The notes under the pieces: generated by a model
What the model was told of the DNA's origin: nothing
Databases searched by the model: none
What the model saw: only the letters and a program-made list of their open reading frames with translations
IMG/VR virus record: IMGVR_UViG_3300044718_000018
Coordinates: 1 to 50,582 of that record
Direction: 5' to 3' (one strand)
DNA: 50,582 bases
Origin: a virus
Taxonomy: Duplodnaviria; Caudoviricetes
Part shown: positions 598-49,508 of the stretch, piece after piece
How positions within the stretch are numbered: the first letter of the stretch is position 1
How the letters are laid out: each line of letters begins with the position of its first letter
Made by a program: the position numbers and the translations under genes

Positions 598-857
598 CTA
601 TTGCTGTAAAATCCGAGGTCATGACCCCAATTGTTGAAGAGACAGTCCAGAAATGGAAATGCCGCCACTGTAAGCATCGGTGGCCAATTGACAACCCGGA
701 AGCCATTACCAACCCGGAACTTCGCCCAAAGCAGTGCGCGAATCGAGATTGCAGAGCGATGGATTGGGACAGGCCTAAGAAAAAAGAGGGCAGACCGTCA
801 AAGCGCAAGAAGGCCGTGGTTCGCCCCAAGGGAACCAAGAAGAAGAAAGGAAAATGA
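594..857 (+). CDS. zinc-ribbon protein with basic tail
   Basis: CRHC...W...P..C....C....WD pattern; coupled start. Confidence 0.7.
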   Translation: MTIAVKSEVMTPIVEETVQKWKCRHCKHRWPIDNPEAITNPELRPKQCANRDCRAMDWDRPKKKEGRPSKRKKAVVRPKGTKKKKGK

Positions 858-858
858 G

Positions 859-1140
859 ATGCCAGACGGAACAAGTTGTATTTGCCAGTATCCGGGGGCG
901 TGGTCTATCGGGTTGGTGCCTCTGTATTATGGCAAAATCCGCGACAAGGCTTGCCCGGTTCATGGCGACAGGAAATTACGTCGCCTGTGTCAGGAGCATT
1001 TCGACGAATACGTCAAAGGTTATGGCAATGATGGCGAAGCAGTTTTTGATGCGGATAACTGCCAAGATTGCGAACGACACCAATCCGGCTGCATCTGCGC
1101 GGACTGCTCAGGCGCGGAACTGACAGCAGATAACGATTAG
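859..1140 (+). CDS. Cys-rich hypothetical protein (MPDGTSCICQ..., 93 aa)
   Basis: ATG at 859 after AAAGGA; CIC, CPVH, CQDC and CADC motifs; upstream part of the 631 ORF shadows gene 594-857. Confidence 0.6.
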   Translation: MPDGTSCICQYPGAWSIGLVPLYYGKIRDKACPVHGDRKLRRLCQEHFDEYVKGYGNDGEAVFDADNCQDCERHQSGCICADCSGAELTADND

Positions 1141-1170
1141 CCGATTTGCGGGCGCATAGGAGGGAAGCCA

Positions 1171-1356
1171 ATGGCGAAAAAGAAGATAGTTGAGACTTTT
1201 CAGGCGCGAGTAGTGGGCGGAATTATTACAGGCCCGGAACTTAATCGCATCTATTTGACTGCACAAAAGGGTTGGGCGCTCGGCGATTCCGTCCGCATTA
1301 CTGTTGAGCGCGTACCACCAAAACCAAACGAATCCACCAAGGAAAAAACACGATGA
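1171..1356 (+). CDS. small hypothetical protein (possibly AbrB-like beta fold)
   Basis: Strong AGGAGG RBS; GWALGDSVRITVE motif. Confidence 0.6.
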   Translation: MAKKKIVETFQARVVGGIITGPELNRIYLTAQKGWALGDSVRITVERVPPKPNESTKEKTR

Positions 1357-1374
1357 AAAATCAGCAGCTTGCGG

Positions 1375-1389
1375 TAAAATACGGGCATG
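1375..1389 (+). promoter_or_regulatory. putative leaderless promoter (-10 TAAAAT 6 nt before ATG 1387)
   Basis: TAAAAT at 1375-1380, no SD before ATG. Confidence 0.45.
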
Positions 1390-1527
1390 AAAACTCGTAT
1401 TTTATTCGCAATCATAATTCTCGCCGCCGTGAGCTTTGGAACCTGCAAAGCCTCAAAAACACGTCAACTCAAACAGTCATTCGACGGGCCACCCTGCATT
1501 CCGCACATGATCTGCCCTGTGGGGTAA
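1387..1527 (+). CDS. small secreted peptide precursor, 46 aa: MKTRILFAIIILAAVSFGTCKASKTRQLKQSFDGPPCIPHMICPVG
   Basis: Manual translation; basic N-region, hydrophobic core, C-terminal Pro/Cys motif; double stop TAA TAG, then ATG of membrane protein. Confidence 0.75.
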   Translation: MKTRILFAIIILAAVSFGTCKASKTRQLKQSFDGPPCIPHMICPVG

Positions 1528-1531
1528 TAGC

Positions 1532-2197
1532 ATGACGGCGGCTTATCTCGCATGGGCCGCCGAGTTGCTCCTTGAATGCGCCGGGGCATACTGCAACCTT
1601 AAACGCTCCAAACTTCTCTCGCTGATCCTGATTCTCTGCGCCATCTCAGATATGGCCACGTTCCTGGTCTTCCAGTTTTTCAGCCGCACGGTTTACGCAT
1701 GGTCTTATTGGGGTGCGCACGCTCTCAAAGGCTTACTGCTGATCTGGCTGGGCTGCTCCATCTGTGGCATGTTCGTTGCCGAGCGCGACAAGATCAAAAC
1801 TGTCTTTATGTCCGGCTTCGTATCCGTTGCCAGCATATCTTTTGTGATGTTCGCGTTTTTCCGTGGCGACTCGCTGAAAGATCGGCTGCTTGATGCGGAG
1901 ATCGTCGCCAGCATGATTCTCTTGGGCATGATCGCGCTGGGCTGGCTGGGCAGAAGCTCCTACCTCTCGCCAGCGTGGAAGATCATCACGGCGGGATTCG
2001 TGCTCATGGTGGGCAGTGATTTGATTTTCACGGTGCTCTGGAGCTTCTGGGATGGAGCGCGGCACTGGTATCCAATCGGCACGATTGCAGCGTTAGGTGT
2101 TTGGGTAGCAGGGCCATTGATGCCACACAAGCTGAAGGATTGCCGCCTGAGCCTAGGCCGTAAAATAGTGGAAGCGGAAAGGGTTAGTGTGTGCTGA
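1532..2197 (+). CDS. multi-pass (~7 TM) membrane protein, no cytoplasmic domain
   Basis: About seven hydrophobic segments over 221 aa; YAWSYW aromatic motif; starts 4 nt after peptide gene. Confidence 0.85.
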   Translation: MTAAYLAWAAELLLECAGAYCNLKRSKLLSLILILCAISDMATFLVFQFFSRTVYAWSYWGAHALKGLLLIWLGCSICGMFVAERDKIKTVFMSGFVSVASISFVMFAFFRGDSLKDRLLDAEIVASMILLGMIALGWLGRSSYLSPAWKIITAGFVLMVGSDLIFTVLWSFWDGARHWYPIGTIAALGVWVAGPLMPHKLKDCRLSLGRKIVEAERVSVC

Positions 2198-2198
2198 T

Positions 2199-2573
2199 AT
2201 GAGTATTTATTGCAGCATTTTCGGATTTGGAGATGAGCATTCCCTCCGCTGTAAGCGCATGAGCAAGATGCGCAATGGCATGTACAGACAGGACGATTCA
2301 AGGCCATGCACTTGTAAAAGTTCCCCGATCAAATACCAGCACAGCGGGATTCTGCCATCAGGCAAAGACGAGCGCGGCGGCATCTTGGGGATTGCCGCAA
2401 TACCGGGTCATATAAAGCGCAGAGGGCGCAAAGCATTGAGCGATGACATGACCCCTTGGCATCCATGGCTGAGAATCAGCATGTTCGAGGCTGATGATTC
2501 AGTCATTCTCGCCAAAAAGCAGGTTGAAGAGTTGAGGGATGCCCTTAATAACTGGCTGGAAAAGTCCCAATAA
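2199..2573 (+). CDS. hypothetical protein
   Basis: ATG 1 nt after upstream TGA; 124-aa open frame. Confidence 0.65.
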   Translation: MSIYCSIFGFGDEHSLRCKRMSKMRNGMYRQDDSRPCTCKSSPIKYQHSGILPSGKDERGGILGIAAIPGHIKRRGRKALSDDMTPWHPWLRISMFEADDSVILAKKQVEELRDALNNWLEKSQ

Positions 2574-2607
2574 ATCCAATTTTGGACGTGAGAGAGGCGG
2601 TGCGGAT

Positions 2608-2757
2608 GTGACGGCGTGGATTATGTTCAACGAAAAGGGTGAGCCGGAATTCATAGATGCCACCCTGAGCGAAGACAAATTCAAATCGTGGTATGCAAAG
2701 TACATGGATCAGGGCTGGAAAGCTGAGCTCTGCGAAATAAAACCAGTTGCAAAATAA
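2608..2757 (+). CDS. small hypothetical protein (49 aa)
   Basis: GTG start after GAGAGGCGG. Confidence 0.55.
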   Translation: MTAWIMFNEKGEPEFIDATLSEDKFKSWYAKYMDQGWKAELCEIKPVAK

Positions 2758-2774
2758 ACAGAACGTGCTAGTTT
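2747..2774 (+). promoter_or_regulatory. sigma70-like promoter candidate upstream of methyltransferase
   Basis: TTGCAA-16 nt-TAGTTT with extended TG. Confidence 0.4.
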
Positions 2775-2838
2775 AAATCCCAGAGCTTCCCGGCTCCCTT
2801 TTTAAAAGCAAGTCCACTTCAGGCAAACCGAATCAGGT

Positions 2839-3507
2839 TTGTCGATGCTCCCGAACTCACAAAACGGAATTAAGCCGCGCATGGTTGACATGTTCTGCGG
2901 TCGTGGTGGCTGGACTAAAGGATTCCAAGCCCATGGCTGGCATTGCATCGGCATTGACCTGAATCCTCAGCCTGATTATCCGGGCGAAGAATTTATCCAA
3001 GCCGACATCGCGCAACTGATAGAGCTTCCGCCGGCAGATTTCTACTGCTGCTCAAGTCCATGTGAGAACTTCAGCATATTTGGAATGCCCAAGGGCTTCC
3101 ATAAAAACCCAAAGTGGCCTTGGATTGGCATCGCCCTTTTCAATCACGCCAGAGAGCTTCTTGAAGCAACTGGCAAGCCGTACGTCATGGAAAACGTGCG
3201 CTGCGCTGAGTGGTTCGTCGGACAGTCCATAAATCACTGCGGACCGTTTTACCTTTGGGGCAGCGGAGTGCCAGCAATATTCCCCGGCGAAGCCTACAAG
3301 GTCAAGAAAGGCCTTTACATCGGCGCTGGCAAGCAGGTTAGGACCATGACGCGGGAACAGCTACGAGAAACCCGCAAGGCTGCCAGAATCGCGGCTGGCA
3401 ACTGGACAAGCTCAAACAGCAAGGCCAGAAAAGAAGAAACGGCACGGCTGGCCGAAATACCGACTCTGGTTTCCTCTCACATCGCTCTAATGGCAGGTGC
3501 CCTATGA
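2839..3507 (+). CDS. short C5-cytosine DNA methyltransferase-family protein (start uncertain)
   Basis: Motif I DMFCGRGG, catalytic SPC (IV), ENV (VI). Confidence 0.85.
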   Translation: MSMLPNSQNGIKPRMVDMFCGRGGWTKGFQAHGWHCIGIDLNPQPDYPGEEFIQADIAQLIELPPADFYCCSSPCENFSIFGMPKGFHKNPKWPWIGIALFNHARELLEATGKPYVMENVRCAEWFVGQSINHCGPFYLWGSGVPAIFPGEAYKVKKGLYIGAGKQVRTMTREQLRETRKAARIAAGNWTSSNSKARKEETARLAEIPTLVSSHIALMAGAL

Positions 3508-4013
3508 AGCGCATAGCCGGCATGAGCGCGCGCAAGTTGGCAGAGTACAAGGCCAAACACGGTCGGCTTCCCTATTCCACGATTCAGCGAAAGGAAAAGC
3601 CATGCACCAGCACTGGTGTCCGCTCTGCGAAGAGTTTTGGATGTGCAGCGAAGACGGCCACGCTTGGACAAAAATCACGGATCTCATTTGCGAAGACTGC
3701 GAAGACGAAATCGCCAATCCGCAAGCGTAAGCCCATCCCATCCCGCAAGAAGCGCCCACGTCCTGTTTCTAAAACTCAGCGCCTTCGCCTGAAAGCTCTC
3801 AAGCTCATCCGCGATAGATGGTGGGCAGAGGGTAAGCGTACCTGCGGGATCTGCGGGAAAGAAATCCTTGAGCGCAGCGAATACACGCTAGACCACATAG
3901 AGCCAGGATCGGCGAAGTCAGACGCGGAAGACAATCTCCAGCCTGCTCACTGGCTCTGCAATCACATCAAGGGCAGTCGCAGAAATTTTACCTTGAAAGG
4001 AAAACGGCCATGA
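3504..4013 (+). CDS. HNH endonuclease
   Basis: CGIC...TLDHIEP...NLQPAHWLCNHIKG. Confidence 0.85.
   Translation: MKRIAGMSARKLAEYKAKHGRLPYSTIQRKEKPCTSTGVRSAKSFGCAAKTATLGQKSRISFAKTAKTKSPIRKRKPIPSRKKRPRPVSKTQRLRLKALKLIRDRWWAEGKRTCGICGKEILERSEYTLDHIEPGSAKSDAEDNLQPAHWLCNHIKGSRRNFTLKGKRP
3602..3730 (+). CDS. small Zn-binding protein nested in another frame of the HNH gene (MHQHWCPLCEEFWMC...CEDC, 42 aa)
   Basis: AAGGA RBS before ATG 3602; CxxC...CxxC. Confidence 0.5.
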   Translation: MHQHWCPLCEEFWMCSEDGHAWTKITDLICEDCEDEIANPQA

Positions 4014-4050
4014 GCAAAGAGCCCGGTATCACGCCCCGAAAAGGAGATTT

Positions 4051-4239
4051 ATGCCGCGTTACAAAGTAGGTGGGCAGTTAAGTTTTATTACTGAAGTCCG
4101 CGCAAAAAACCCGATAGAAGCCGAACAAAAAGGACTCAGGAAAGCATGGCGGGAAGGCTCCTGCTATTTGGACGTTTCTTCCGTGCAGCGGATTGTGAAG
4201 CGCGACGGCGAAGACGTGGAATTGCCAGATGGAGAATAA
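4051..4239 (+). CDS. hypothetical protein
   Basis: AAGGAG RBS. Confidence 0.7.
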   Translation: MPRYKVGGQLSFITEVRAKNPIEAEQKGLRKAWREGSCYLDVSSVQRIVKRDGEDVELPDGE

Positions 4240-4243
4240 AACC

Positions 4244-4606
4244 ATGAAACCCTCAATTCCCGGTATCACGCCCACGCCCGCGAAAAGCTTCTCTGAATTA
4301 TTAGCAATGGCTTTGGAGTGTGCCATGCGATTCGGGCAGGGCAAGAGTAGTAACGAATCCAAGGCCAAAGAACTTCAATCCCAAATACTTGAGCGTCATG
4401 CCTCTCTGGTATCCCGCGTCACTGAGCTGGAGAAGGCGCTGCGGGAATGTCTGAGCTGGATTTGTAATACGCCAGCGGTAGGTTCGGCAATGGGTAGAGA
4501 GAAATTCAGAATCGTTACCCGTGCTGAATCCGTTCTCTCCTCTGAACGCGCGATTAAGCATGCGCTTGGGGCCGAACCTGCCCCGCATGAGGAGGGAAGA
4601 AAGTAA
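4244..4606 (+). CDS. hypothetical coiled-coil protein
   Basis: GGAG RBS before ATG 4244; RVTELEKALRE coiled coil. Confidence 0.65.
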   Translation: MKPSIPGITPTPAKSFSELLAMALECAMRFGQGKSSNESKAKELQSQILERHASLVSRVTELEKALRECLSWICNTPAVGSAMGREKFRIVTRAESVLSSERAIKHALGAEPAPHEEGRK

Positions 4607-4845
4607 TGGGAGTACATGAAAATATTGGGCTAGATAGGTTTCCGAAGCAAGGCATATACCTGAATGCGGAAGTTGATGTTTGCTTTAACTATCAATCTCA
4701 TCTTAGCATCCCCGGCGTGATTGTCCGCGATGACATGGAAGAACCATACCGCACGATCATCAAATTGGCGGACGGAAGATTTATAGAGGCCGTTGAATGC
4801 CAGTATTCATTGCGGGGCGCGGCCACTCAGGGAGATACGGAATGA
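4606..4845 (+). CDS. conserved-looking phage hypothetical protein
   Basis: TAATG coupling; FPKQG...VCFNY...G.IVRDD.EEP...II.L.DGR...ECQY. Confidence 0.75.
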   Translation: MGVHENIGLDRFPKQGIYLNAEVDVCFNYQSHLSIPGVIVRDDMEEPYRTIIKLADGRFIEAVECQYSLRGAATQGDTE

Positions 4846-5009
4846 GCCAGACAACACAAGCCGAACGACTTATTGAACTCAACAAACAGGACGCAGAGGG
4901 CGAACTTATATGCCCATTTTGCGGCGATGACGATTATGACCGTATCGGACTGAAAGCACACTTACAGAGAGGATTTTGCGATGCCTACGAAAACACAGAA
5001 CGAATCTGA
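4842..5009 (+). CDS. small zinc-finger protein
   Basis: CPFC...LKAHL...C; GGAG RBS, ATGA overlap. Confidence 0.65.
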   Translation: MSQTTQAERLIELNKQDAEGELICPFCGDDDYDRIGLKAHLQRGFCDAYENTERI

Positions 5010-5295
5010 AGCAACTTGCAAGCACTGCGGCGAACCTATAAGTGATGCTCCCGGAATTTTTATACATATCCGCGATGGCGAGAAATTTGCCAATGAAACT
5101 ATTCCAGAAAAACGGCGGTGTTTTTTGTTTGCGCAGCGTGCATCGCAGCCAAATAGTTTAGATGAAATCGCGGAATATCTTGACGAGCAGCGCATACCGG
5201 GATTCGAGCCGTTGCAGGCTGATTCTTGTCCAATGGCATATACAACGCTTGAGCGCGTAAAAATTCTCAAGGCAAGAAGTAGCGAGGATATTTGA
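4981..5295 (+). CDS. hypothetical protein with CKHC motif
   Basis: GAGGA RBS; CKHCG..I. Confidence 0.6.
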   Translation: MPTKTQNESEATCKHCGEPISDAPGIFIHIRDGEKFANETIPEKRRCFLFAQRASQPNSLDEIAEYLDEQRIPGFEPLQADSCPMAYTTLERVKILKARSSEDI

Positions 5296-5296
5296 T

Positions 5297-5719
5297 ATGG
5301 CGACTACACCGGAGCAGAAAAATATGGACGCAATCTTAAACGCAATACCGTGGCGGTGCTTTCATTGTGACTTCATTACGGCAGACCCACTAGAGGCGCA
5401 AGCACACTTTGGCGACAGAGATGACGCGGAAGAGTTCAAGCCAATCTGTAAATGGTGGGCTTCGATGACTGCCGATGAAAAGCTGTTTCACTTCCAGCAG
5501 GCGCTAAAGGATTTGGAAGCGGAGCGGAGAGAAACAGACCGGCAGCGGGTTGCGATAGAAGGCTTGGAGTATCAGGTCGACTCATTCCCGCAGCAGATCA
5601 AAAGCTACAAGCCTTTTCGCGGCTGCAATTCTATCTATGACGTGTTCTGCGTTTTCGATTCAATGGAAGGCAGAGCACTCGCCGCAGAAGAAAAGTTAAC
5701 TCTGGAGCGTGAACCATGA
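5297..5719 (+). CDS. hypothetical protein (WRCFHC...HFG zinc motif plus coiled coil)
   Basis: GAGGA RBS; motif typical of phage accessory proteins. Confidence 0.75.
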   Translation: MATTPEQKNMDAILNAIPWRCFHCDFITADPLEAQAHFGDRDDAEEFKPICKWWASMTADEKLFHFQQALKDLEAERRETDRQRVAIEGLEYQVDSFPQQIKSYKPFRGCNSIYDVFCVFDSMEGRALAAEEKLTLEREP

Positions 5720-13586: not shown

Positions 13587-13982
13587 CTATTTCAAATTCC
13601 AGTGCCACGATTCGTCACCGTTCGTATACTTCAATTCTCTAAAGCCGAGCGCGATCATCTCAGCCCTAAGCACAGCATTTTGCCCAATCTCGCGTGCGCG
13701 GACTCTTCCGGCTAAAGCGTCTTCAATTACCAGGGTGTCTGCTTTTACTCCCGTTGTCACGGTGCGTGATTCTATTTTCATATCAAGCAACTGGCTGTCT
13801 AGTTTTTTGGCGTAGGCTTTTCGCGCTGCTATCTTTTCCGGCTCAGTCAGTTTGGGGAGTGGCGCTGATGCCGCATTTGCTGTAGCTATCTCCACCTGCC
13901 TGTTATTGAGGCTGTTTTCGACTATCACGCCCAACCCAACCACAAGCACGATGCCCATGCCGAGAAACCCTAAAATCTTCAT
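13587..13982 (-). CDS. membrane-anchored exported protein
   Basis: GGAGGA RBS; N-terminal TM helix. Confidence 0.8.
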   Translation of the reverse strand: MKILGFLGMGIVLVVGLGVIVENSLNNRQVEIATANAASAPLPKLTEPEKIAARKAYAKKLDSQLLDMKIESRTVTTGVKADTLVIEDALAGRVRAREIGQNAVLRAEMIALGFRELKYTNGDESWHWNLK

Positions 13983-14028
13983 TTCTTTCCTCCCGAAGTC
14001 CAGTAGCTTACATCAGAGTACCGGGAAT

Positions 14029-14229
14029 TTACACGGCAACTTTTACGGCAGCGGATGATTCCACGGGATCGCTCACCGTGATTGTGCCAACCTGGACGGT
14101 CTTAACCGTCTGGTAAATGGTGAACGGCAGCTCGCCGGGGCGGCCCTGACAGTAGGCAATTGCCGCGTCAACTGTGTCAAACTCATCAGGATAGAGAAGG
14201 GCTTGCGCTTTGCTGGATACCTTGAACAT
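14029..14229 (-). CDS. hypothetical protein (MFKVSSKAQ...)
   Basis: AGGAG RBS before ATG 14229. Confidence 0.65.
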   Translation of the reverse strand: MFKVSSKAQALLYPDEFDTVDAAIAYCQGRPGELPFTIYQTVKTVQVGTITVSDPVESSAAVKVAV

Positions 14230-14297
14230 ATAGCTCCTAACGGGCGAACAAAAATAGAGGCTTGACCTATACACCTAAAATGCACATACTATGCACC

Positions 14298-14435
14298 ATG
14301 AAACGGGTTCCTTTTAACGCTAACGAAAAAGATGAGTCGCGGCTAGAAGATCTGACAAAGAAGCTTGGAATTACCGTGACCGCTGTTATTCGTGAAGCAA
14401 TTCGAGATATGCACAAGAAAGAGATAGGCAAATGA
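14298..14435 (+). CDS. ribbon-helix-helix (CopG-like) regulator, 45 aa, not in ORF track
   Basis: MKRVPFNANEKDESRLEDLTKKLGITVTAVIREAIRDMHKKEIGK; TACTAT 5 nt upstream; ATGA-coupled to next gene. Confidence 0.8.
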   Translation: MKRVPFNANEKDESRLEDLTKKLGITVTAVIREAIRDMHKKEIGK

Positions 14436-22414: not shown

Positions 22415-23086
22415 TTATTTCCTCACGCTGATTAGCTGCACTTCTTTGCACTCATAAAGCTGGTAATAGAAGTTGGAAAACTCAATTCCTTCACGCGTCC
22501 CGCTGGAGGCTGAAGAGTTGCTGCGGGCTGTGCCCAGATCGAAGCGGACACGATGCAGAAAAGTAAAATCTGCTGTGATGGCTGCGTTCAAAGCTGGTGC
22601 CACGGTGAAGGTAACGAGCCCCAGAGAAACGGTGTAATCCGTGGTTGGAGTTTTCTTTACCCCTGCCACATAGACCGTTACGCCCGCTGGATTCTGGCAT
22701 GCTTCCAGAAAGCCGCCGAAGTTACGAACAAGTTGAAAGTTGAGCGTAACGCCGTCGCCTATCCCTATCGGCTGGCCTGAAAAAACAGAGTCCTCTAAGC
22801 GTTGCGTGAGGTCGCTTTCATTCAAAAGGAAATCATCAAACTGTCCACCGCGCGAAAGGAAAAAGCCGACAAGCTGCTCCAGTGGAGTAGAGCCTGTATC
22901 ATCTCGAAACCGGGGATCATTTAAAAGGTATTCGTAAGTGAGAGTAAATTCCCAGATGGGATTCTGAAAGTTCTGGATTCTCACCTCGCGTCCGGCAAGC
23001 GAGATTTGAATATCGGTTGAGAGCGTAGGATTCTTAACCACTTCCCATCCCAGGCCACGAATTTTGGGGAAGAGAATATTGCTCAC
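22415..23086 (-). CDS. distal tail protein (DUF2460 family)
   Basis: GRE.R, FF....GQ...F, IG.GDG....FQL.R, ITADF.F...RFD. Confidence 0.9.
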   Translation of the reverse strand: MSNILFPKIRGLGWEVVKNPTLSTDIQISLAGREVRIQNFQNPIWEFTLTYEYLLNDPRFRDDTGSTPLEQLVGFFLSRGGQFDDFLLNESDLTQRLEDSVFSGQPIGIGDGVTLNFQLVRNFGGFLEACQNPAGVTVYVAGVKKTPTTDYTVSLGLVTFTVAPALNAAITADFTFLHRVRFDLGTARSNSSASSGTREGIEFSNFYYQLYECKEVQLISVRK

Positions 23087-40912: not shown

Positions 40913-41107
40913 CTATTTCGCGACGAGGGCTCTAGCTTCTTTGTGGGTGGCCCTGAATGCCTGAAACTGAATGAAATTGCGCCCGCGCTTATCTCGCACA
41001 ATTCGAAAATTCATCCGATGCAGCAGCCCACAATCGCAGCACTGCATGATGTAATTCTTCCGGCGGGGCTGAACCCACTCTCCCGGCTTCACCTGAGTGC
41101 ACTTCAT
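40913..41107 (-). CDS. small CCDCGL.H protein, paralogue 2
   Basis: GEWVQP...Y...CCDCGLLHRMNFR; ATGA overlap. Confidence 0.75.
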   Translation of the reverse strand: MKCTQVKPGEWVQPRRKNYIMQCCDCGLLHRMNFRIVRDKRGRNFIQFQAFRATHKEARALVAK

Positions 41108-41886
41108 GCGCTCGCCGCCTGCTTCTTAGCCAGAAAGCCGCATACCACTTCCCAGCACGCCCCTGATCTGAAATAGTCGCCATGCAGATCAACTGGATTC
41201 AGCTCTGCTGGTAGCAAGCCAATACAGTTAACCGATTGGCAGTTCTCAGGTGCATGTCCCGCGCCCACCAAGCCAAGCCTTGCGCCAAGGTGAATAATTC
41301 CTGAGCCCAGCAACGCGCCATCCGCCGGGCAGTACATCACCAGAACTTTGTTGCTCATCTCTGCGATGTTTGAGGTATTCAGCGCATCAAAGGGAACGTC
41401 TGCCGCCACCATCACAAGTTTGTCCACACACGGCGCTGTGCCGGCGGATTCCAGGGCTTTCTGTAACAGGAAATTGCCCATGCTGTGAGCAATTACGTTC
41501 GGGCATTCCAGATCCCGCAGGCATTGCAGCAAGTCTGTTGCGCTGCGCTCTGCTTGCACGCGATCCTCAAGGTATTCGAGAATGTTGCCCTGAGATGGCC
41601 ACGAATAGCCGACGAGCGTTACATCTGGGCCCAGTCCATCGAATACAGCCTGCATCACGTCCATATCTCGCTGCCACGATTCGTTGAAGCCGTGAATGAA
41701 AAGAACGACTGGCTTGCCTTGGGCCTTGATGTCCGCAAGTGCGATCGATCGATCTACGGGCATCCAGTCGATTGTCTGATCGAAAGGCTTACCCGGGGCG
41801 CTCCACCATGTATTCCCAAAGGCGTTACGCTCTGAGCTGAATTGTCCCGGCTGGTACTTCCGGTTGGTACAGAGAAAGATGCTCAC
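41104..41886 (-). CDS. alpha/beta hydrolase (DUF900-like esterase/lipase)
   Basis: LFIHGFN, YSWPS.G, AHSMGN nucleophile elbow, AADV, D.AL..S, H..YF. Confidence 0.88.
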   Translation of the reverse strand: MSIFLCTNRKYQPGQFSSERNAFGNTWWSAPGKPFDQTIDWMPVDRSIALADIKAQGKPVVLFIHGFNESWQRDMDVMQAVFDGLGPDVTLVGYSWPSQGNILEYLEDRVQAERSATDLLQCLRDLECPNVIAHSMGNFLLQKALESAGTAPCVDKLVMVAADVPFDALNTSNIAEMSNKVLVMYCPADGALLGSGIIHLGARLGLVGAGHAPENCQSVNCIGLLPAELNPVDLHGDYFRSGACWEVVCGFLAKKQAASA

Positions 41887-47169: not shown

Positions 47170-49362
47170 TCACTGCGCTGCAAATAATCCGTGCTCATTC
47201 ACCATCTCTGCCGCCTTTAGGTTGGCCGTGGCCTCTTTCCAGTACGATTCCTTTAGCTCACATCCTATGAATTGCCGACCCATTTTCACTGCCTGGTAGC
47301 CTTCCGAGCCGATTCCCGCATATGGCGAGAAAACCGTATCGCCCTCATTCGTCCAAAGCCGGATGCCGCGCTCGATCACTTCTAGTTGCAGTGGGCAGAT
47401 GTGGCGCTCGTCTTCGTCCTCGCGCGCACCCTCTTTGTTGAGCGTGTTCGATGGGTTGATGTCCATCCAAACCGGCGAAGCGTAACGTTGCCAGACCTGG
47501 ACCGGGAAAGATTCGTTTGTGTTTGTCACGCGCTCAAGGTTTTCCCCTGGCTTGCGCATTGTCACCAGATAATCTGGTATCCCCTGGCGGCTCATACACG
47601 CGTCTTTCTTGAGTTGCTTGTGCAGCAGTCCTAGAGCCTTCGTGCGCTGCATTGCCGTAACCGGGTCTTTCCAGATACAGACTTCAGAATGGAAGATGAA
47701 TCCAACCTCTTTAAAAATGCGGATGAGTTCGCCGCGAAAGTCTGAAATTCCTATAACGCCATCCCGCTCTTTGGATGTGGGCAGGTTCATGCAATGAAAA
47801 CTCATCAGTCGCCCAGGCTTAAGGATGCGCAGCAATTCAGGGGCGAGAAAACGGAAGTGCTCATAAAATTCTGCGTGGGTCCGGCAGTTTCCCATGTCGC
47901 GCTCGCTCGCGGAATACGTGTACAGGCTGGCGAACGGCGGAGAATAAATCTGGTAATGCACTGAGTCCGTGCGTAGGTCTTTGATCTTCTCAACCGTATC
48001 CGCGCAGTGAAGTGTCCATGTTCGGCCAGCGGACATACGTGGAATGTAAATGTCTCCTTTTCTGCTCTGGCCGTGAATTTCTGCCTGATTCAAATCGTGC
48101 ATATTGTTGACCATCTCCTCTGCCATCTTTTGTGCGTCCGCTTCTTTCCGCTTGATATTGGCCACTACTTCGCCCTCGCCCGTGCTCGTCACGATGTAGC
48201 AGTCAACCGGCGACTTCTGCCCAAATCGCCAGCAACGCCTAATCGCCTGATAGAACTGCTCATAAGAATCAGAGAGTCCGAGAAAAACCACGTTATGACA
48301 CGATTGGAAGTTGAGGCCGAAGCCACAAATGGAAGGCTTGGAAACCAGCACGCGAATGTTCCCCTGCGCGAAATCCAGCATGGCCTTTTCTTTGAAGGCT
48401 GATGAATCAGAACCGCAAACCTCAACCGCGCCCGGTATCAACTTCGCCGCTGCATTCGATTCGCTATTAAGGTTTGTCCATATCAGCCATTGCTCGTCCG
48501 GCTTCATGGCGGCGATTCTGGCGACCTCGGCGGCCCGTTCATCGGTACTGCCTGACCGCGCTCTCTGGCGCTCTTGTAGCGTCACAGCAGGCAGGGCAAA
48601 CAATGCTCCCTCTGGTGCGCGGTCAACTTCTACGGTGCGTTCGTGAATGGTCAACTCAGGCAGAATGAAACCGGCATCGTCATACCCCAAATCAGAGGGC
48701 TTGCGAATCATCACAGCCCAGGAGCAAACCCACTTCCAGAAATCTTTTTGCGCGTGACCTTTGAGCCGCCATTTGGAAGTGTCCCCGCCATCATGCACAA
48801 AGAATGTGCTCAACATCTCCGTGCGCGTGAGATTTCCCAAAAACTCTGAGTGATTGCCAAGTTCCATGTAATCGTTTGGCGAAGGGGTTGCCGTGCATTC
48901 CAGCTTGTATTCTGTCGCATGGAAATCTTCAACGATGGCGTTTTTGAATTTACCTTCAAACGATTTCAGGATGCTGGATTCATCGAGCACTATGCCGGCG
49001 TAATCCGATGGCCGAAAGTGGTCAAGCATCTCGTAATTGGCGATCGTGATTTGAGCGTCAACCGACTGGCGCGCATAAACTACTTCAATGCCAAGCTTCT
49101 TGCCTTCGCGGACGGTCTGCGGGGCTACAGCCAGCGGAGCAAGGATTAATACCTTGCCCGGTATCTGGCGCGCCCATTCAAGCTGCATAAAGCTCTTGCC
49201 CAATCCGCAATCAGCGAAGATGGCCGCTCGGCCTTTGCGCAAGCACCAGCGCACAATATCCCGCTGCACAGGAAACAACATCGGATTGATTGGTCCAGGC
49301 TCAATGCCACTGGCCAACACGCGAATCCGTTTAGAGTCTAAAAATTGCTGGTACGCAACCAT
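47170..49362 (-). CDS. SF2 (SNF2-like) helicase fused to N4-C/N6-A DNA methyltransferase
   Basis: ADCGLGKS, DESS, TATP, QAIRRCWRFGQ; then YSPPF, HICPLQL, FSPYAGIGS (beta-class order). Confidence 0.9.
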   Translation of the reverse strand: MVAYQQFLDSKRIRVLASGIEPGPINPMLFPVQRDIVRWCLRKGRAAIFADCGLGKSFMQLEWARQIPGKVLILAPLAVAPQTVREGKKLGIEVVYARQSVDAQITIANYEMLDHFRPSDYAGIVLDESSILKSFEGKFKNAIVEDFHATEYKLECTATPSPNDYMELGNHSEFLGNLTRTEMLSTFFVHDGGDTSKWRLKGHAQKDFWKWVCSWAVMIRKPSDLGYDDAGFILPELTIHERTVEVDRAPEGALFALPAVTLQERQRARSGSTDERAAEVARIAAMKPDEQWLIWTNLNSESNAAAKLIPGAVEVCGSDSSAFKEKAMLDFAQGNIRVLVSKPSICGFGLNFQSCHNVVFLGLSDSYEQFYQAIRRCWRFGQKSPVDCYIVTSTGEGEVVANIKRKEADAQKMAEEMVNNMHDLNQAEIHGQSRKGDIYIPRMSAGRTWTLHCADTVEKIKDLRTDSVHYQIYSPPFASLYTYSASERDMGNCRTHAEFYEHFRFLAPELLRILKPGRLMSFHCMNLPTSKERDGVIGISDFRGELIRIFKEVGFIFHSEVCIWKDPVTAMQRTKALGLLHKQLKKDACMSRQGIPDYLVTMRKPGENLERVTNTNESFPVQVWQRYASPVWMDINPSNTLNKEGAREDEDERHICPLQLEVIERGIRLWTNEGDTVFSPYAGIGSEGYQAVKMGRQFIGCELKESYWKEATANLKAAEMVNEHGLFAAQ

Positions 49363-49508
49363 CTGCTGTTTTTCTCCCGCTCTCTCTGCACCACACACGC
49401 CGCACATGGGCAGTAAATAGCGTGCAACTCCACCATGGGCTCTCGCTGCTGGTCTTGTATCAGCGCTATCTCATCTAATTTCTGCTGCCCGTATGTTTCA
49501 AAGCTCAT
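49338..49508 (-). CDS. small hypothetical protein (MSFETYGQQKLDE...H...CPCAAC, 56 aa), not in ORF track
   Basis: ATGA coupling; manual translation. Confidence 0.55.
   Translation of the reverse strand: MSFETYGQQKLDEIALIQDQQREPMVELHAIYCPCAACVVQREREKNSRWLRTSNF

Follow-up and report, generated by a model that had tools for sequence, protein, structure and literature searches.

Short exported peptides that work beside a dedicated partner protein are known from several phage and bacterial systems, and here a two-gene cassette of a tailed virus is compared with them. The DNA analysed, called the window below, is the whole of IMG/VR record IMGVR_UViG_3300044718_000018 (Duplodnaviria; Caudoviricetes), with a length of 50,582 nucleotides (nt). 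The cassette consists of a small open reading frame (ORF) for a pre-peptide and, directly downstream, a gene for a seven-transmembrane (7TM) protein. A first-pass annotation, made from the sequence alone, had proposed that the two form a module for phage communication or for interference with a host peptide circuit. We prefer, with a probability of roughly 40%, to read it as a peptide/7TM pair of host origin, expressed from a nested arrangement and acting in cis on the periplasmic side. On this comparative evidence, the cassette would comprise three reading frames and two products, since the outer frame around the peptide gene is best read as a carrier ORF. In kind, it appears to be a small exported peptide with a dedicated membrane partner, plus an unusual nested expression device.

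The arbitrium (AimP/AimR) and RRNPP systems are similar in that two adjacent phage genes are involved, one of which encodes a short Sec-exported pre-peptide (for the propeptide-receptor definition of RRNPP, see the excerpt of PMC10075063). However, the receptor of those systems is a cytoplasmic tetratricopeptide repeat (TPR) protein and the peptide is re-imported, whereas the cassette pairs a 7TM protein with a peptide that is probably tethered by a lipid, and its host lead is no Firmicute. When a cognate TPR receptor beside the propeptide gene was looked for, no TPR, Pfam or NCBIfam match was obtained in the partner or its neighbours. The first-pass statement that excluded a TPR protein and a kinase as the partner holds, as the partner matched no Pfam, NCBIfam or PHROGs family. 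The agr system offers a likeness to the peptide/7TM pair as well, because AgrD, of about 46 amino acids (aa), carries a cysteine-closed ring and is encoded beside a polytopic membrane protein. Unlike the cassette peptide, AgrD has no Sec signal peptide, and AgrB and AgrC are defined families with peptidase and kinase functions. For an AgrB-family peptidase or a histidine-kinase receptor, no Pfam family was found at cut-off with the 7TM protein or 26 distant relatives. Llp of phage T5 and Cor are small phage exclusion lipoproteins with a functional disulfide and an action on the envelope, but they act alone on an outer-membrane receptor, without an obligatory 7TM partner. The peptide matched no Pfam or PHROGs family at E <= 1, with Llp, Cor, bacteriocin-release and entericidin membership considered.

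In gene layout, Rz/Rz1 of lambda is a close parallel, since a small Pro-rich, Cys-bearing pre-lipoprotein gene lies wholly within another ORF, in the +1 frame, and is routinely missed by gene callers. In contrast to Rz, the enclosing ORF of the cassette has no transmembrane (TM) helix, coiled coil or conserved sequence, and the partner is a downstream 7TM protein without periplasmic domain. The cassette is also outside a lysis cassette: in the window it is flanked by small genes of early type and by genes for a methylase and an HNH nuclease. A spanin was considered and rejected, given the lack of an i-spanin partner (an N-terminal TM helix plus a periplasmic coiled coil) and the wrong placement. 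A further comparison is with an uncharacterised family of 7TM proteins of about 255 aa from Terriglobales, a dominant but poorly studied soil group. This family has a homologous 7TM protein and, in some loci, an upstream exported peptide with a Cys pair. It differs in its larger intergenic gaps, in the absence of a phase-locked carrier ORF except at two loci (L033 and L034; loci are given L numbers here), in an extra C-terminal tail and in a third gene, which encodes a single-pass protein. The open-access literature that was searched holds no description of the peptide motif, the 7TM family or the carrier-ORF design, and none of the protein families, defence models and solved folds searched claims the peptide or the 7TM protein.

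Peptide gene and the frame around it

The features of the cassette in the window are as follows.

1339..1343 (+): AAGGA, resembling a Shine-Dalgarno sequence, 9 nt ahead of the carrier ATG, with an A-rich spacer behind it
1353..1535 (+): carrier (outer) ORF, 60 codons, with ATGA overlaps at both ends; product not conserved
1375..1380 (+): TAAAAT hexamer, with no promoter support
1387..1527 (+): pre-peptide gene, 46 codons, nested at +1 within the carrier ORF
1387..1443 (+): signal peptide, residues 1-19, with a basic n-region, a hydrophobic core and F-G-T before Cys20; assigned by rule
1444..1446 (+): codon of Cys20 at the lipobox position, the presumed lipidation site; Cys in 20 of 22 aligned peptides
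1483..1524 (+): conserved core D-G-P-P-C-I-P-H-M-I-C-P-V-G, in which C37 and C43 presumably close a disulfide loop
1532..2197 (+): 7TM protein gene, 221 aa, predicted N-out/C-in, with acidic residues conserved in the periplasmic half

As the first-pass annotation had described, ORF 1387-1527 encodes a signal peptide, a basic spacer and a C-terminal C-x5-C core; in full, a basic n-region and a hydrophobic core lead to Cys20, which is followed by a basic spacer and C37-x5-C43. Among the 22 aligned peptides, five residues are invariant (D33, P35, C37, P39 and C43). The common pattern is a basic N-terminus, a hydrophobic core, usually a Cys, a basic stretch, D-[GI]-P-x-C-[ILVF]-P, 3-7 residues, C and usually P, in precursors of 42-60 aa with a mature peptide of about 22-40 aa. 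The peptide matched no family in Pfam or PHROGs at E <= 1. In NCBIfam, only its signal peptide gave a row, to the PG1828 lipoprotein and below threshold (E 0.026; 15 bits, where the cut-off is 50), and the ESM Atlas search with the peptide gave no usable match.

Inspection of the DNA upstream of 7TM homologues showed a homologous small ORF directly upstream of the 7TM gene in all 26 viral or metagenome loci, 24 of which are complete (L021 and L025 are cut by contig ends), with the small ORF ending 4-16 nt before the 7TM start. The adjacency that the first-pass annotation had put up for inspection is thus borne out, and it extends to L030, the locus of a distant 7TM relative (29% identity), a hypothetical protein of a Candidatus Angelobacter metagenome-assembled genome (MAG). 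The loci come from viral contigs (3 + 3) and metagenome contigs (19), and near-duplicates occur among them (L014=L016, L008=L019, L026~L027, L010~L025). L030 has the same nested peptide/7TM layout, a Cys-less signal peptide and a tyrosine integrase 0.5 kb upstream, and it is a prophage-like copy in Acidobacteriota (a Terriglobales MAG).

The mean pairwise nucleotide difference among 21 sequences is 0.395, 0.281 and 0.576 at codon positions 1, 2 and 3 of the peptide frame, which indicates that this frame is the one under protein-level selection. On this pattern of substitution, the peptide ORF is judged to be a real gene, translated and selected for its protein.

The peptide ORF is nested in the 60-codon frame 1353-1535 and is in the +1 frame relative to it. 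An upstream gene of 61 codons (1171-1356, +) ends with a TGA that shares bases with the ATG of the 60-codon frame (ATGA, 1353-1356), and the TGA of the latter frame shares bases with the ATG of the 7TM gene in the same way (ATGA, 1532-1535). The outer frame was examined in 24 loci, that is, 21 phage-type loci together with L030, L033 and L034. It is free of stops over the whole peptide ORF in 24/24 loci, and an in-frame outer start lies upstream of the peptide ATG in 24/24 loci as well. Its TGA overlaps the 7TM start, as ATGA or GTGA, in 22/24 loci; the exceptions are L013 (TAATG) and L007, where the stop is 5 nt upstream of the 7TM start. The gap between the peptide stop and the 7TM start is 4, 7, 10, 13, 16 or 19 nt, all equal to 1 mod 3, in 23/24 loci, with L007 (12 nt) as the exception. 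The gap is non-coding for both the peptide and the 7TM protein and yet its length changes in steps of three, which suggests that a third frame is read across it.

Base composition points in the same direction. Third positions of the peptide ORFs at which a stop could be created (n=90) hold C 53 times, G 28 times, A 9 times and T not once, whereas T is present at 120/500 positions in the same context of 7TM genes and at 242/714 other peptide-ORF positions. Under synonymous reshuffling of the peptide ORF, the chance of an open outer frame is 0.03-0.6 per locus. The 24 ORFs were grouped into 19 clusters at >=75% nt identity and the largest value was taken per cluster; the product is 6e-11, a figure that treats the clusters as independent and hence overstates the significance. 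In most related loci, GGAG or AGGA with an A-rich spacer precedes the outer ATG or GTG, while the peptide ATG often has just a G-run, spaced too closely. In L012, L013 and L018, the outer and peptide ATGs are 4 nt apart behind one Shine-Dalgarno sequence.

Could the peptide ORF be a shadow, with the 1353-1535 frame as the real gene? The outer frame has the better Shine-Dalgarno sequence, ATGA at both ends in the window and an open frame in 24/24 loci. However, when the same data are read in the outer frame, the third position is the least variable (0.281) and the first the most variable (0.576). The outer products have no recognisable sequence common to the lineages, and the peptide frame retains its signal peptide and five invariant residues through indels. 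We regard this explanation as scarcely credible. The first-pass annotation had named the overlapping frame as a refutation of the peptide; the frame is itself maintained, but it is no alternative to the peptide, and the comparative evidence supports both.

The outer-frame product is hydrophilic, without any hydrophobic stretch. Since this product is not conserved although the frame is maintained, the outer frame is read as a carrier ORF for translational coupling to the 7TM gene, ATGA junctions being a basis for inferring such coupling. In other words, the comparisons indicate that the outer frame is maintained for being translated and the peptide frame for its product: the protein product of the outer frame appears irrelevant, and its translation is what matters. 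The case for the nested frames rests on the stop-free frame, the three-step indels in the non-coding gap, the ATGA junction and the conserved Shine-Dalgarno sequence. The nested design would fix the peptide:7TM ratio, probably in favour of the 7TM protein. To our knowledge, nested designs of this kind are rarely documented in phages outside the spanins. A -1 frameshift that fuses the carrier ORF to the 7TM protein was considered and rejected, as it would add a non-conserved hydrophilic extension to an N-out protein.

The first-pass annotation had also placed the peptide gene behind a leaderless-type TAAAAT. The hexamer is present, but a role as promoter is not supported, because the match is at chance level (3 promoter-like sites found, TAAAAT included, against 3.0 expected) and is not conserved in relatives. 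The strong Shine-Dalgarno sequence and the start of the 1353 frame, 34 nt upstream, suggest that the mRNA extends upstream and is not leaderless. As a separate observation, L008, L017, L020, L022 and L028 have a near-identical leader about 50-60 nt upstream of the peptide ATG, although their peptides and 7TM proteins have diverged. This common leader comprises the Shine-Dalgarno sequence, the outer-frame ATG and the next 15 or so codons, and could be a cassette recombination boundary or a conserved regulatory RNA stretch.

The 7TM protein and its chromosomal relatives

The 7TM gene begins 4 nt past the peptide stop, as first described, and an AlphaFold2 model built with 71 relatives has seven long helices and a short C-terminal helix, with short loops only and no extra domain (mean predicted local distance difference test score, pLDDT, 85.8; predicted template modelling score, pTM, 0.79). 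Over the 71 relatives, the mean number of lysines and arginines (K+R) is 2.83, 2.48, 3.08 and 5.34 in loops 1, 3, 5 and the tail, and 0.01, 0.79, 2.00 and 1.13 at the N-terminus and in loops 2, 4 and 6. These counts indicate an N-out/C-in topology, and consequently the conserved acidic residues would be on the side reached by the peptide. The residues conserved in the close family (E11, E15, D40, K66, K116, D117, D121, E123, D163 and a W-x-G-A-R-H-W-Y-P loop) sit in the outer helix halves or the outer loops. Across 50 distant relatives, only W8, L14, E15, G18 and D40 are kept in at least 90%. The C-x-x-C of helix 3 occurs in the close family only and disappears in more distant members; on account of this restriction, Mer-type or copper handling was rejected as a function.

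Relatives of the 7TM protein amount to 76 close matches in the protein database and 60 representatives among 1.84 billion proteins. The window protein had nothing at cut-off in Pfam, PHROGs, NCBIfam or PADLOC, and neither the 26 distant relatives nor the chromosomal relatives matched a library family at cut-off. A PADLOC search with 14 proteins (both window frames, the 7TM protein, chromosomal relatives and third-gene products) gave 0 families at E <= 0.01. Single distant relatives scored below the Pfam gathering thresholds for DUF6962 (22.1 bits, cut-off 27) and YhhN (17.6 bits, cut-off 25.6); the window 7TM protein matched neither. By tblastn, the 7TM protein found no match in 50,697 GenBank phage records, and a profile search of genome contigs with the close 7TM alignment found no match either. 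A search with the terminase yielded no lead to the host. In structural searches, the model had nothing at E <= 1e-3 in the PDB (Foldseek) or BFVD, the best PDB hit being at E 3.5e-2 with a TM-score of 0.46. VIA-align gave a best Z of 11.8 with a root-mean-square deviation of 4.8 Å over 191 residues, and rhodopsins and G-protein-coupled receptors tie at Z 9-12, a range that is uninformative for helical bundles. In the ESM Atlas, the clusters nearest to the 7TM protein are unnamed, and its structural neighbours are hypothetical Acidobacteriota proteins (TM-score 0.75-0.78). The nearest clusters that bear a Pfam domain are 7TM sensor domains, whose scores of 0.82-0.84 make them leads only. When the 71-row 7TM alignment was co-folded with the 22-row alignment of peptide residues 17-46, the interaction prediction score from aligned errors (ipSAE) was 0.00 in both runs, which were made without controls; the outcome bears on no reading.

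The 7TM protein could be an intramembrane enzyme that trims, cyclises or modifies the peptide, following the AgrB/AgrD logic, with a product that acts elsewhere. Charged residues are conserved inside the helices (E15 and D40 in at least 90% of the 50 distant relatives), and the invariant D-x-P-x-C-x-P core could be a recognition site. On the other hand, no peptidase or transferase family was matched, the fold searches yielded generic 7TM bundles only, and just two polar residues are conserved across the wide family. Such a processing pair therefore seems clearly improbable.

On the chromosomal side, hhalign aligned the phage-type profile with nine chromosomal proteins over 203 columns (probability 98.4%, E 6e-15), and from this profile evidence the phage-type 7TM protein is taken to be homologous to a large uncharacterised Terriglobales family. 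The family has at least 461 clusters at E <= 1e-5, the source names of which include Terriglobales and Terracidiphilus, and all chromosomal clusters are labelled hypothetical except one with the Joint Genome Institute (JGI) label ‘small-conductance mechanosensitive channel’. With a profile built from 50 relatives, matches were obtained in 2/401 genomes sampled from the phylum against 20/401 from the order. The two best chromosomal matches, L033 and L034, have the nested phase-locked layout, and their peptides end in motifs of the C-C-...-P-C-P-...-C type. The weaker matches L040, L043, L045, L051 and L053 combine larger gaps with an exported mini-peptide upstream, which carries a C-terminal Cys pair. 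In total, an upstream peptide was found in 7/21 chromosomal loci (8/22 rows of the chromosomal search) by a filter for an ORF of at least 25 codons that ends near the gene, with at least 2 Cys in the last 30 residues, and then for a hydrophobic N-terminus by eye.

In four chromosomal loci, a conserved third gene overlaps the end of the 7TM gene; its product, of 168-190 aa, has a single TM helix at the N-terminus and a helical part in the cytoplasm.

L056, 7406-7957 (-): third gene
L057, 7300-7842 (-): third gene
L058, 6846-7418 (+): third gene
L059, 8743-9249 (+): third gene

Its product matched no Pfam, NCBIfam or PADLOC family, and the model of it (pLDDT 79.5) had no PDB match at E <= 1e-3. 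This gene may encode a read-out partner without counterpart in the phage cassettes, which have no third gene and all differ in their downstream neighbours. Chromosomal copies adjoin housekeeping genes, for example those of glutaminyl-tRNA synthetase (L055), dihydrodipicolinate synthase (L056), and initiation factor 3 with ribosomal protein S1 (L060). The cassette thus links two unannotated families, a mini-peptide that gene callers tend to skip and a 7TM protein with hundreds of chromosomal relatives. The phage link provides a handle on a possible peptide/7TM envelope pathway of Acidobacteriota and on its manipulation by temperate phages.

Fate of the peptide and proposed mechanism

A Cys closes the hydrophobic core in 20/22 aligned peptides, and counted by lineage a lipobox-like Cys is present in 20/24. 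The tetrapeptide that ends in this Cys is W-G-A-C in ten cases, F-G-T-C (the window included), V-G-V-C and L-A-I-C in two each, and F-A-A-C, Y-G-A-C, F-G-V-C and L-A-L-C in one each. In L026/L027, L030, L033 and L034, the Cys at the lipobox position is missing and A-x-A-like sites occur instead. An extract of a spanin survey gives the lipobox consensus [LVI][ASTVI][GAS]C and reports phage lipoproteins with deviant lipoboxes, among which A-W-A-C is functional (PMC6139136). The lipobox-position Cys in 20/24 lineages argues for a lipid-tethered product rather than a diffusible signal. As judged from these motifs, there are about two chances in three that the product is, in most lineages, a lipopeptide tethered to the membrane.

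This bears on the proposal of a diffusible phage-phage or phage-host communication peptide with the 7TM protein as its receptor. A pre-peptide with a dedicated partner is what such a system would contain, the lineages without the Cys (L026/L027, L030, L033 and L034) would release a free periplasmic peptide, and the sensor-domain clusters of the ESM Atlas (0.82-0.84, leads only) lean the same way. Against it, the great majority of lineages have the lipobox-position Cys, and Acidobacteriota, the host lead, is a diderm phylum in which a peptide of 2-3 kDa would not freely exit the periplasm. Moreover, an output domain is absent from the 7TM protein, and a search for longer fused forms among proteins of 547-2000 aa found none, which is weak evidence; there is no TPR or kinase partner either. 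We consider diffusible communication very improbable. The phage-to-phage communication of the first-pass annotation is consequently disfavoured, by the lipobox-like Cys and by the sole host lead, whereas its other suggestion, interference with a host peptide circuit, still stands as a possibility in view of the chromosomal homologues of the pair in Terriglobales, the order of the L030 MAG. For annotation in general, a signal peptide and cysteines beside a membrane protein do not amount to phage communication when a lipobox-position Cys is present.

The mechanism that we propose for a host-derived pair acting in cis would be as follows. Ribosomes would start at the strong Shine-Dalgarno sequence and ATG 1353, or arrive from the upstream gene, translate a carrier ORF whose amino-acid sequence varies freely, terminate at the ATGA that is the 7TM start, and re-start on the 7TM gene, the synthesis of which would thus be coupled to the upstream genes. 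The pre-peptide would come from a weaker start at 1387, nested at +1 in the carrier, and the nesting would set the peptide:partner ratio. The pre-peptide would be exported by Sec and in most lineages lipidated at the Cys after the hydrophobic core, leaving on the periplasmic leaflet a lipopeptide some 27 residues long, in which the two invariant Cys would close a proline-rich loop of 4-8 residues. The loop and the basic linker may then engage the acidic periplasm-facing half of the 7TM protein made in that cell, the peptide serving as tethered ligand or as small subunit. Speculatively, the phage copy, which has no chromosomal third gene, might plug into or jam the host peptide/7TM pathway and hold the envelope of the infected or lysogenic cell in a state that suits the phage. 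A more far-reaching version, which we hold to be doubtful, is that the cassette is the phage-captured half of an unrecognised bacterial signalling device, in which a 7TM receptor that has no output domain would be gated by a linked tethered Cys-loop peptide, with a single-pass read-out in the chromosomes and a ratio set by the carrier ORF; the capture would give phages control of this pathway of the host.

Several points weigh against the cis-acting pair. The physical contact between peptide and 7TM protein is inferred, and the role in a host pathway is speculative, being drawn solely from homology and the missing third gene. The lipobox of the window is non-canonical (F-G-T-C), the consensus small residue (A) at -1 is present in only 12/20 Cys-bearing peptides, and four lineages have no lipobox Cys at all; cleavage by signal peptidase I or an uncleaved signal-anchor are possible alternatives to lipidation. 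The nested phase-locked layout is limited to the phage-type branch with L030, L033 and L034, as it is absent from L040, L043, L045, L051 and L053, and 14 chromosomal rows have no upstream peptide by the filter. The product of chance values, as noted above, is too favourable. Finally, among the sequencing runs for window 600-2800 there was no RNA run, and only soil DNA runs of small share.

Surroundings of the cassette

The record is linear, with a completeness estimate of ~90%, and it contains siphovirus-type structural genes (terminase, portal, tape measure and tail proteins). The cassette is among densely packed + strand genes at the left end. A survey of 78 ORFs around 15 loci was used for comparison. 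Even in L001, the 87%-identical relative of the window, the cassette has other flanks than in the window itself. In L001, L026 and L030, a tyrosine integrase is encoded on the opposite strand, no more than 2.3 kb upstream. No integrase was found in the window; judging by the gene order of L001 (integrase, cassette, methylase, HNH), it may be located past the end of the contig. From its surroundings, the cassette appears to be a mobile accessory unit of temperate soil phages, with Terriglobales (Acidobacteriota) as the only host lead.

Such a location is typical of superinfection exclusion, in which the lipopeptide would mask a receptor or inhibit the entry machinery, the 7TM protein would block DNA passage, and both would act on incoming phage. 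The cassette is among variable early genes, near an integrase in three of the loci just named, and its flanks vary between loci. Small disulfide-bearing phage lipoproteins such as T5 Llp and Cor, as well as inner-membrane exclusion proteins, are known. However, there is no PHROGs or PADLOC family match, the homologous pairs in housekeeping chromosomal contexts with a third gene are left unexplained, and the strict two-gene coupling over 19 or more lineages suggests joint work. We take superinfection exclusion as an unlikely explanation, though one that deserves to be kept in mind.

Endolysin-type genes are found 1.4-1.8 kb downstream of the cassette, on the opposite strand, in L003, L008 and L018, and they bear on a role in toxin/immunity or lysis timing, in which a membrane-active lipopeptide would be countered by a 7TM protein that protects the producer, with the carrier ORF ensuring an excess of the protector. 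The precursor and mature sizes are like those of bacteriocin-release or entericidin-type lipoproteins, and the nested design favours the 7TM protein over the peptide. However, there is no Pfam lysis or entericidin match at E <= 1, the nearby endolysin genes are on the opposite strand in a separate cassette, and the mature peptide is basic and proline-rich rather than amphipathic. A toxin/immunity role is in our view quite unlikely, and the cis-acting host-derived pair is retained as the preferred reading.

The lysis genes of the relatives were observed as follows. L003 has a compact lysis cassette at 4221-5538 (-), with an M15/VanY-type peptidase, a 72-aa holin-like protein and a 193-aa u-spanin-like protein, so that L003 at least has its own lysis genes. 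The 193-aa protein has a lipobox N-terminus (L-L-A-C) and a glycine-rich C-terminal TM helix, which is the layout of a unimolecular spanin; its homologue in L018, at 2627-3406 (-), has no evident lipobox Cys. Scans of 36 + 43 ORFs and of 22 ORFs of the window recognised no family of holins, endolysins or spanins, the sole match of the lysis scan being a tail-module glycoside hydrolase (22415-23086), and the lysis proteins of L003, L008 and L018 had no tblastn match there.

Other features of the window lie around the cassette. Just upstream are two small CxxC-rich, zinc-finger-like proteins of no family (594-857 and 859-1140, +), and an alternative-frame long ORF at 631-1140 covers both Cys-rich genes. 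Downstream is a terminator-like hairpin.

2783..2806 (+): terminator-like hairpin with a T-run, in the gap before the methylase gene

The hairpin is a possible end of the cassette operon; such sites are regionally at chance level, and its position alone is suggestive. An Rfam scan of the whole window found no RNA family at gathering score. The C5 cytosine methylase gene that follows (2839-3507, +) looks truncated, with 222 aa and a Pfam match in the N-terminal half of the model only, whereas the syntenic position of L001 has a full-length methylase of 490 aa. An HNH nuclease gene (3504-4013, +) comes after it, and a helicase-methyltransferase fusion is encoded at the opposite end of the record (47170-49407, -). 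In the viral contig L010, a release-factor-like ORF of 172 aa with PCRF and RF-1 domains (E 4e-30) is located just downstream of the cassette, at 3653-4171 (+).

Farther away in the window, a small ORF at 14262-14435 (+) has a weak match to a phage transcriptional repressor (E 7.5e-5) and lies at a divergent junction with 13587-14274 (-), which may be the lysis/lysogeny switch region. In addition, a DUF900 alpha/beta-hydrolase gene (41104-41886, -; E 1.3e-21) is present among the minus-strand replication and early genes.

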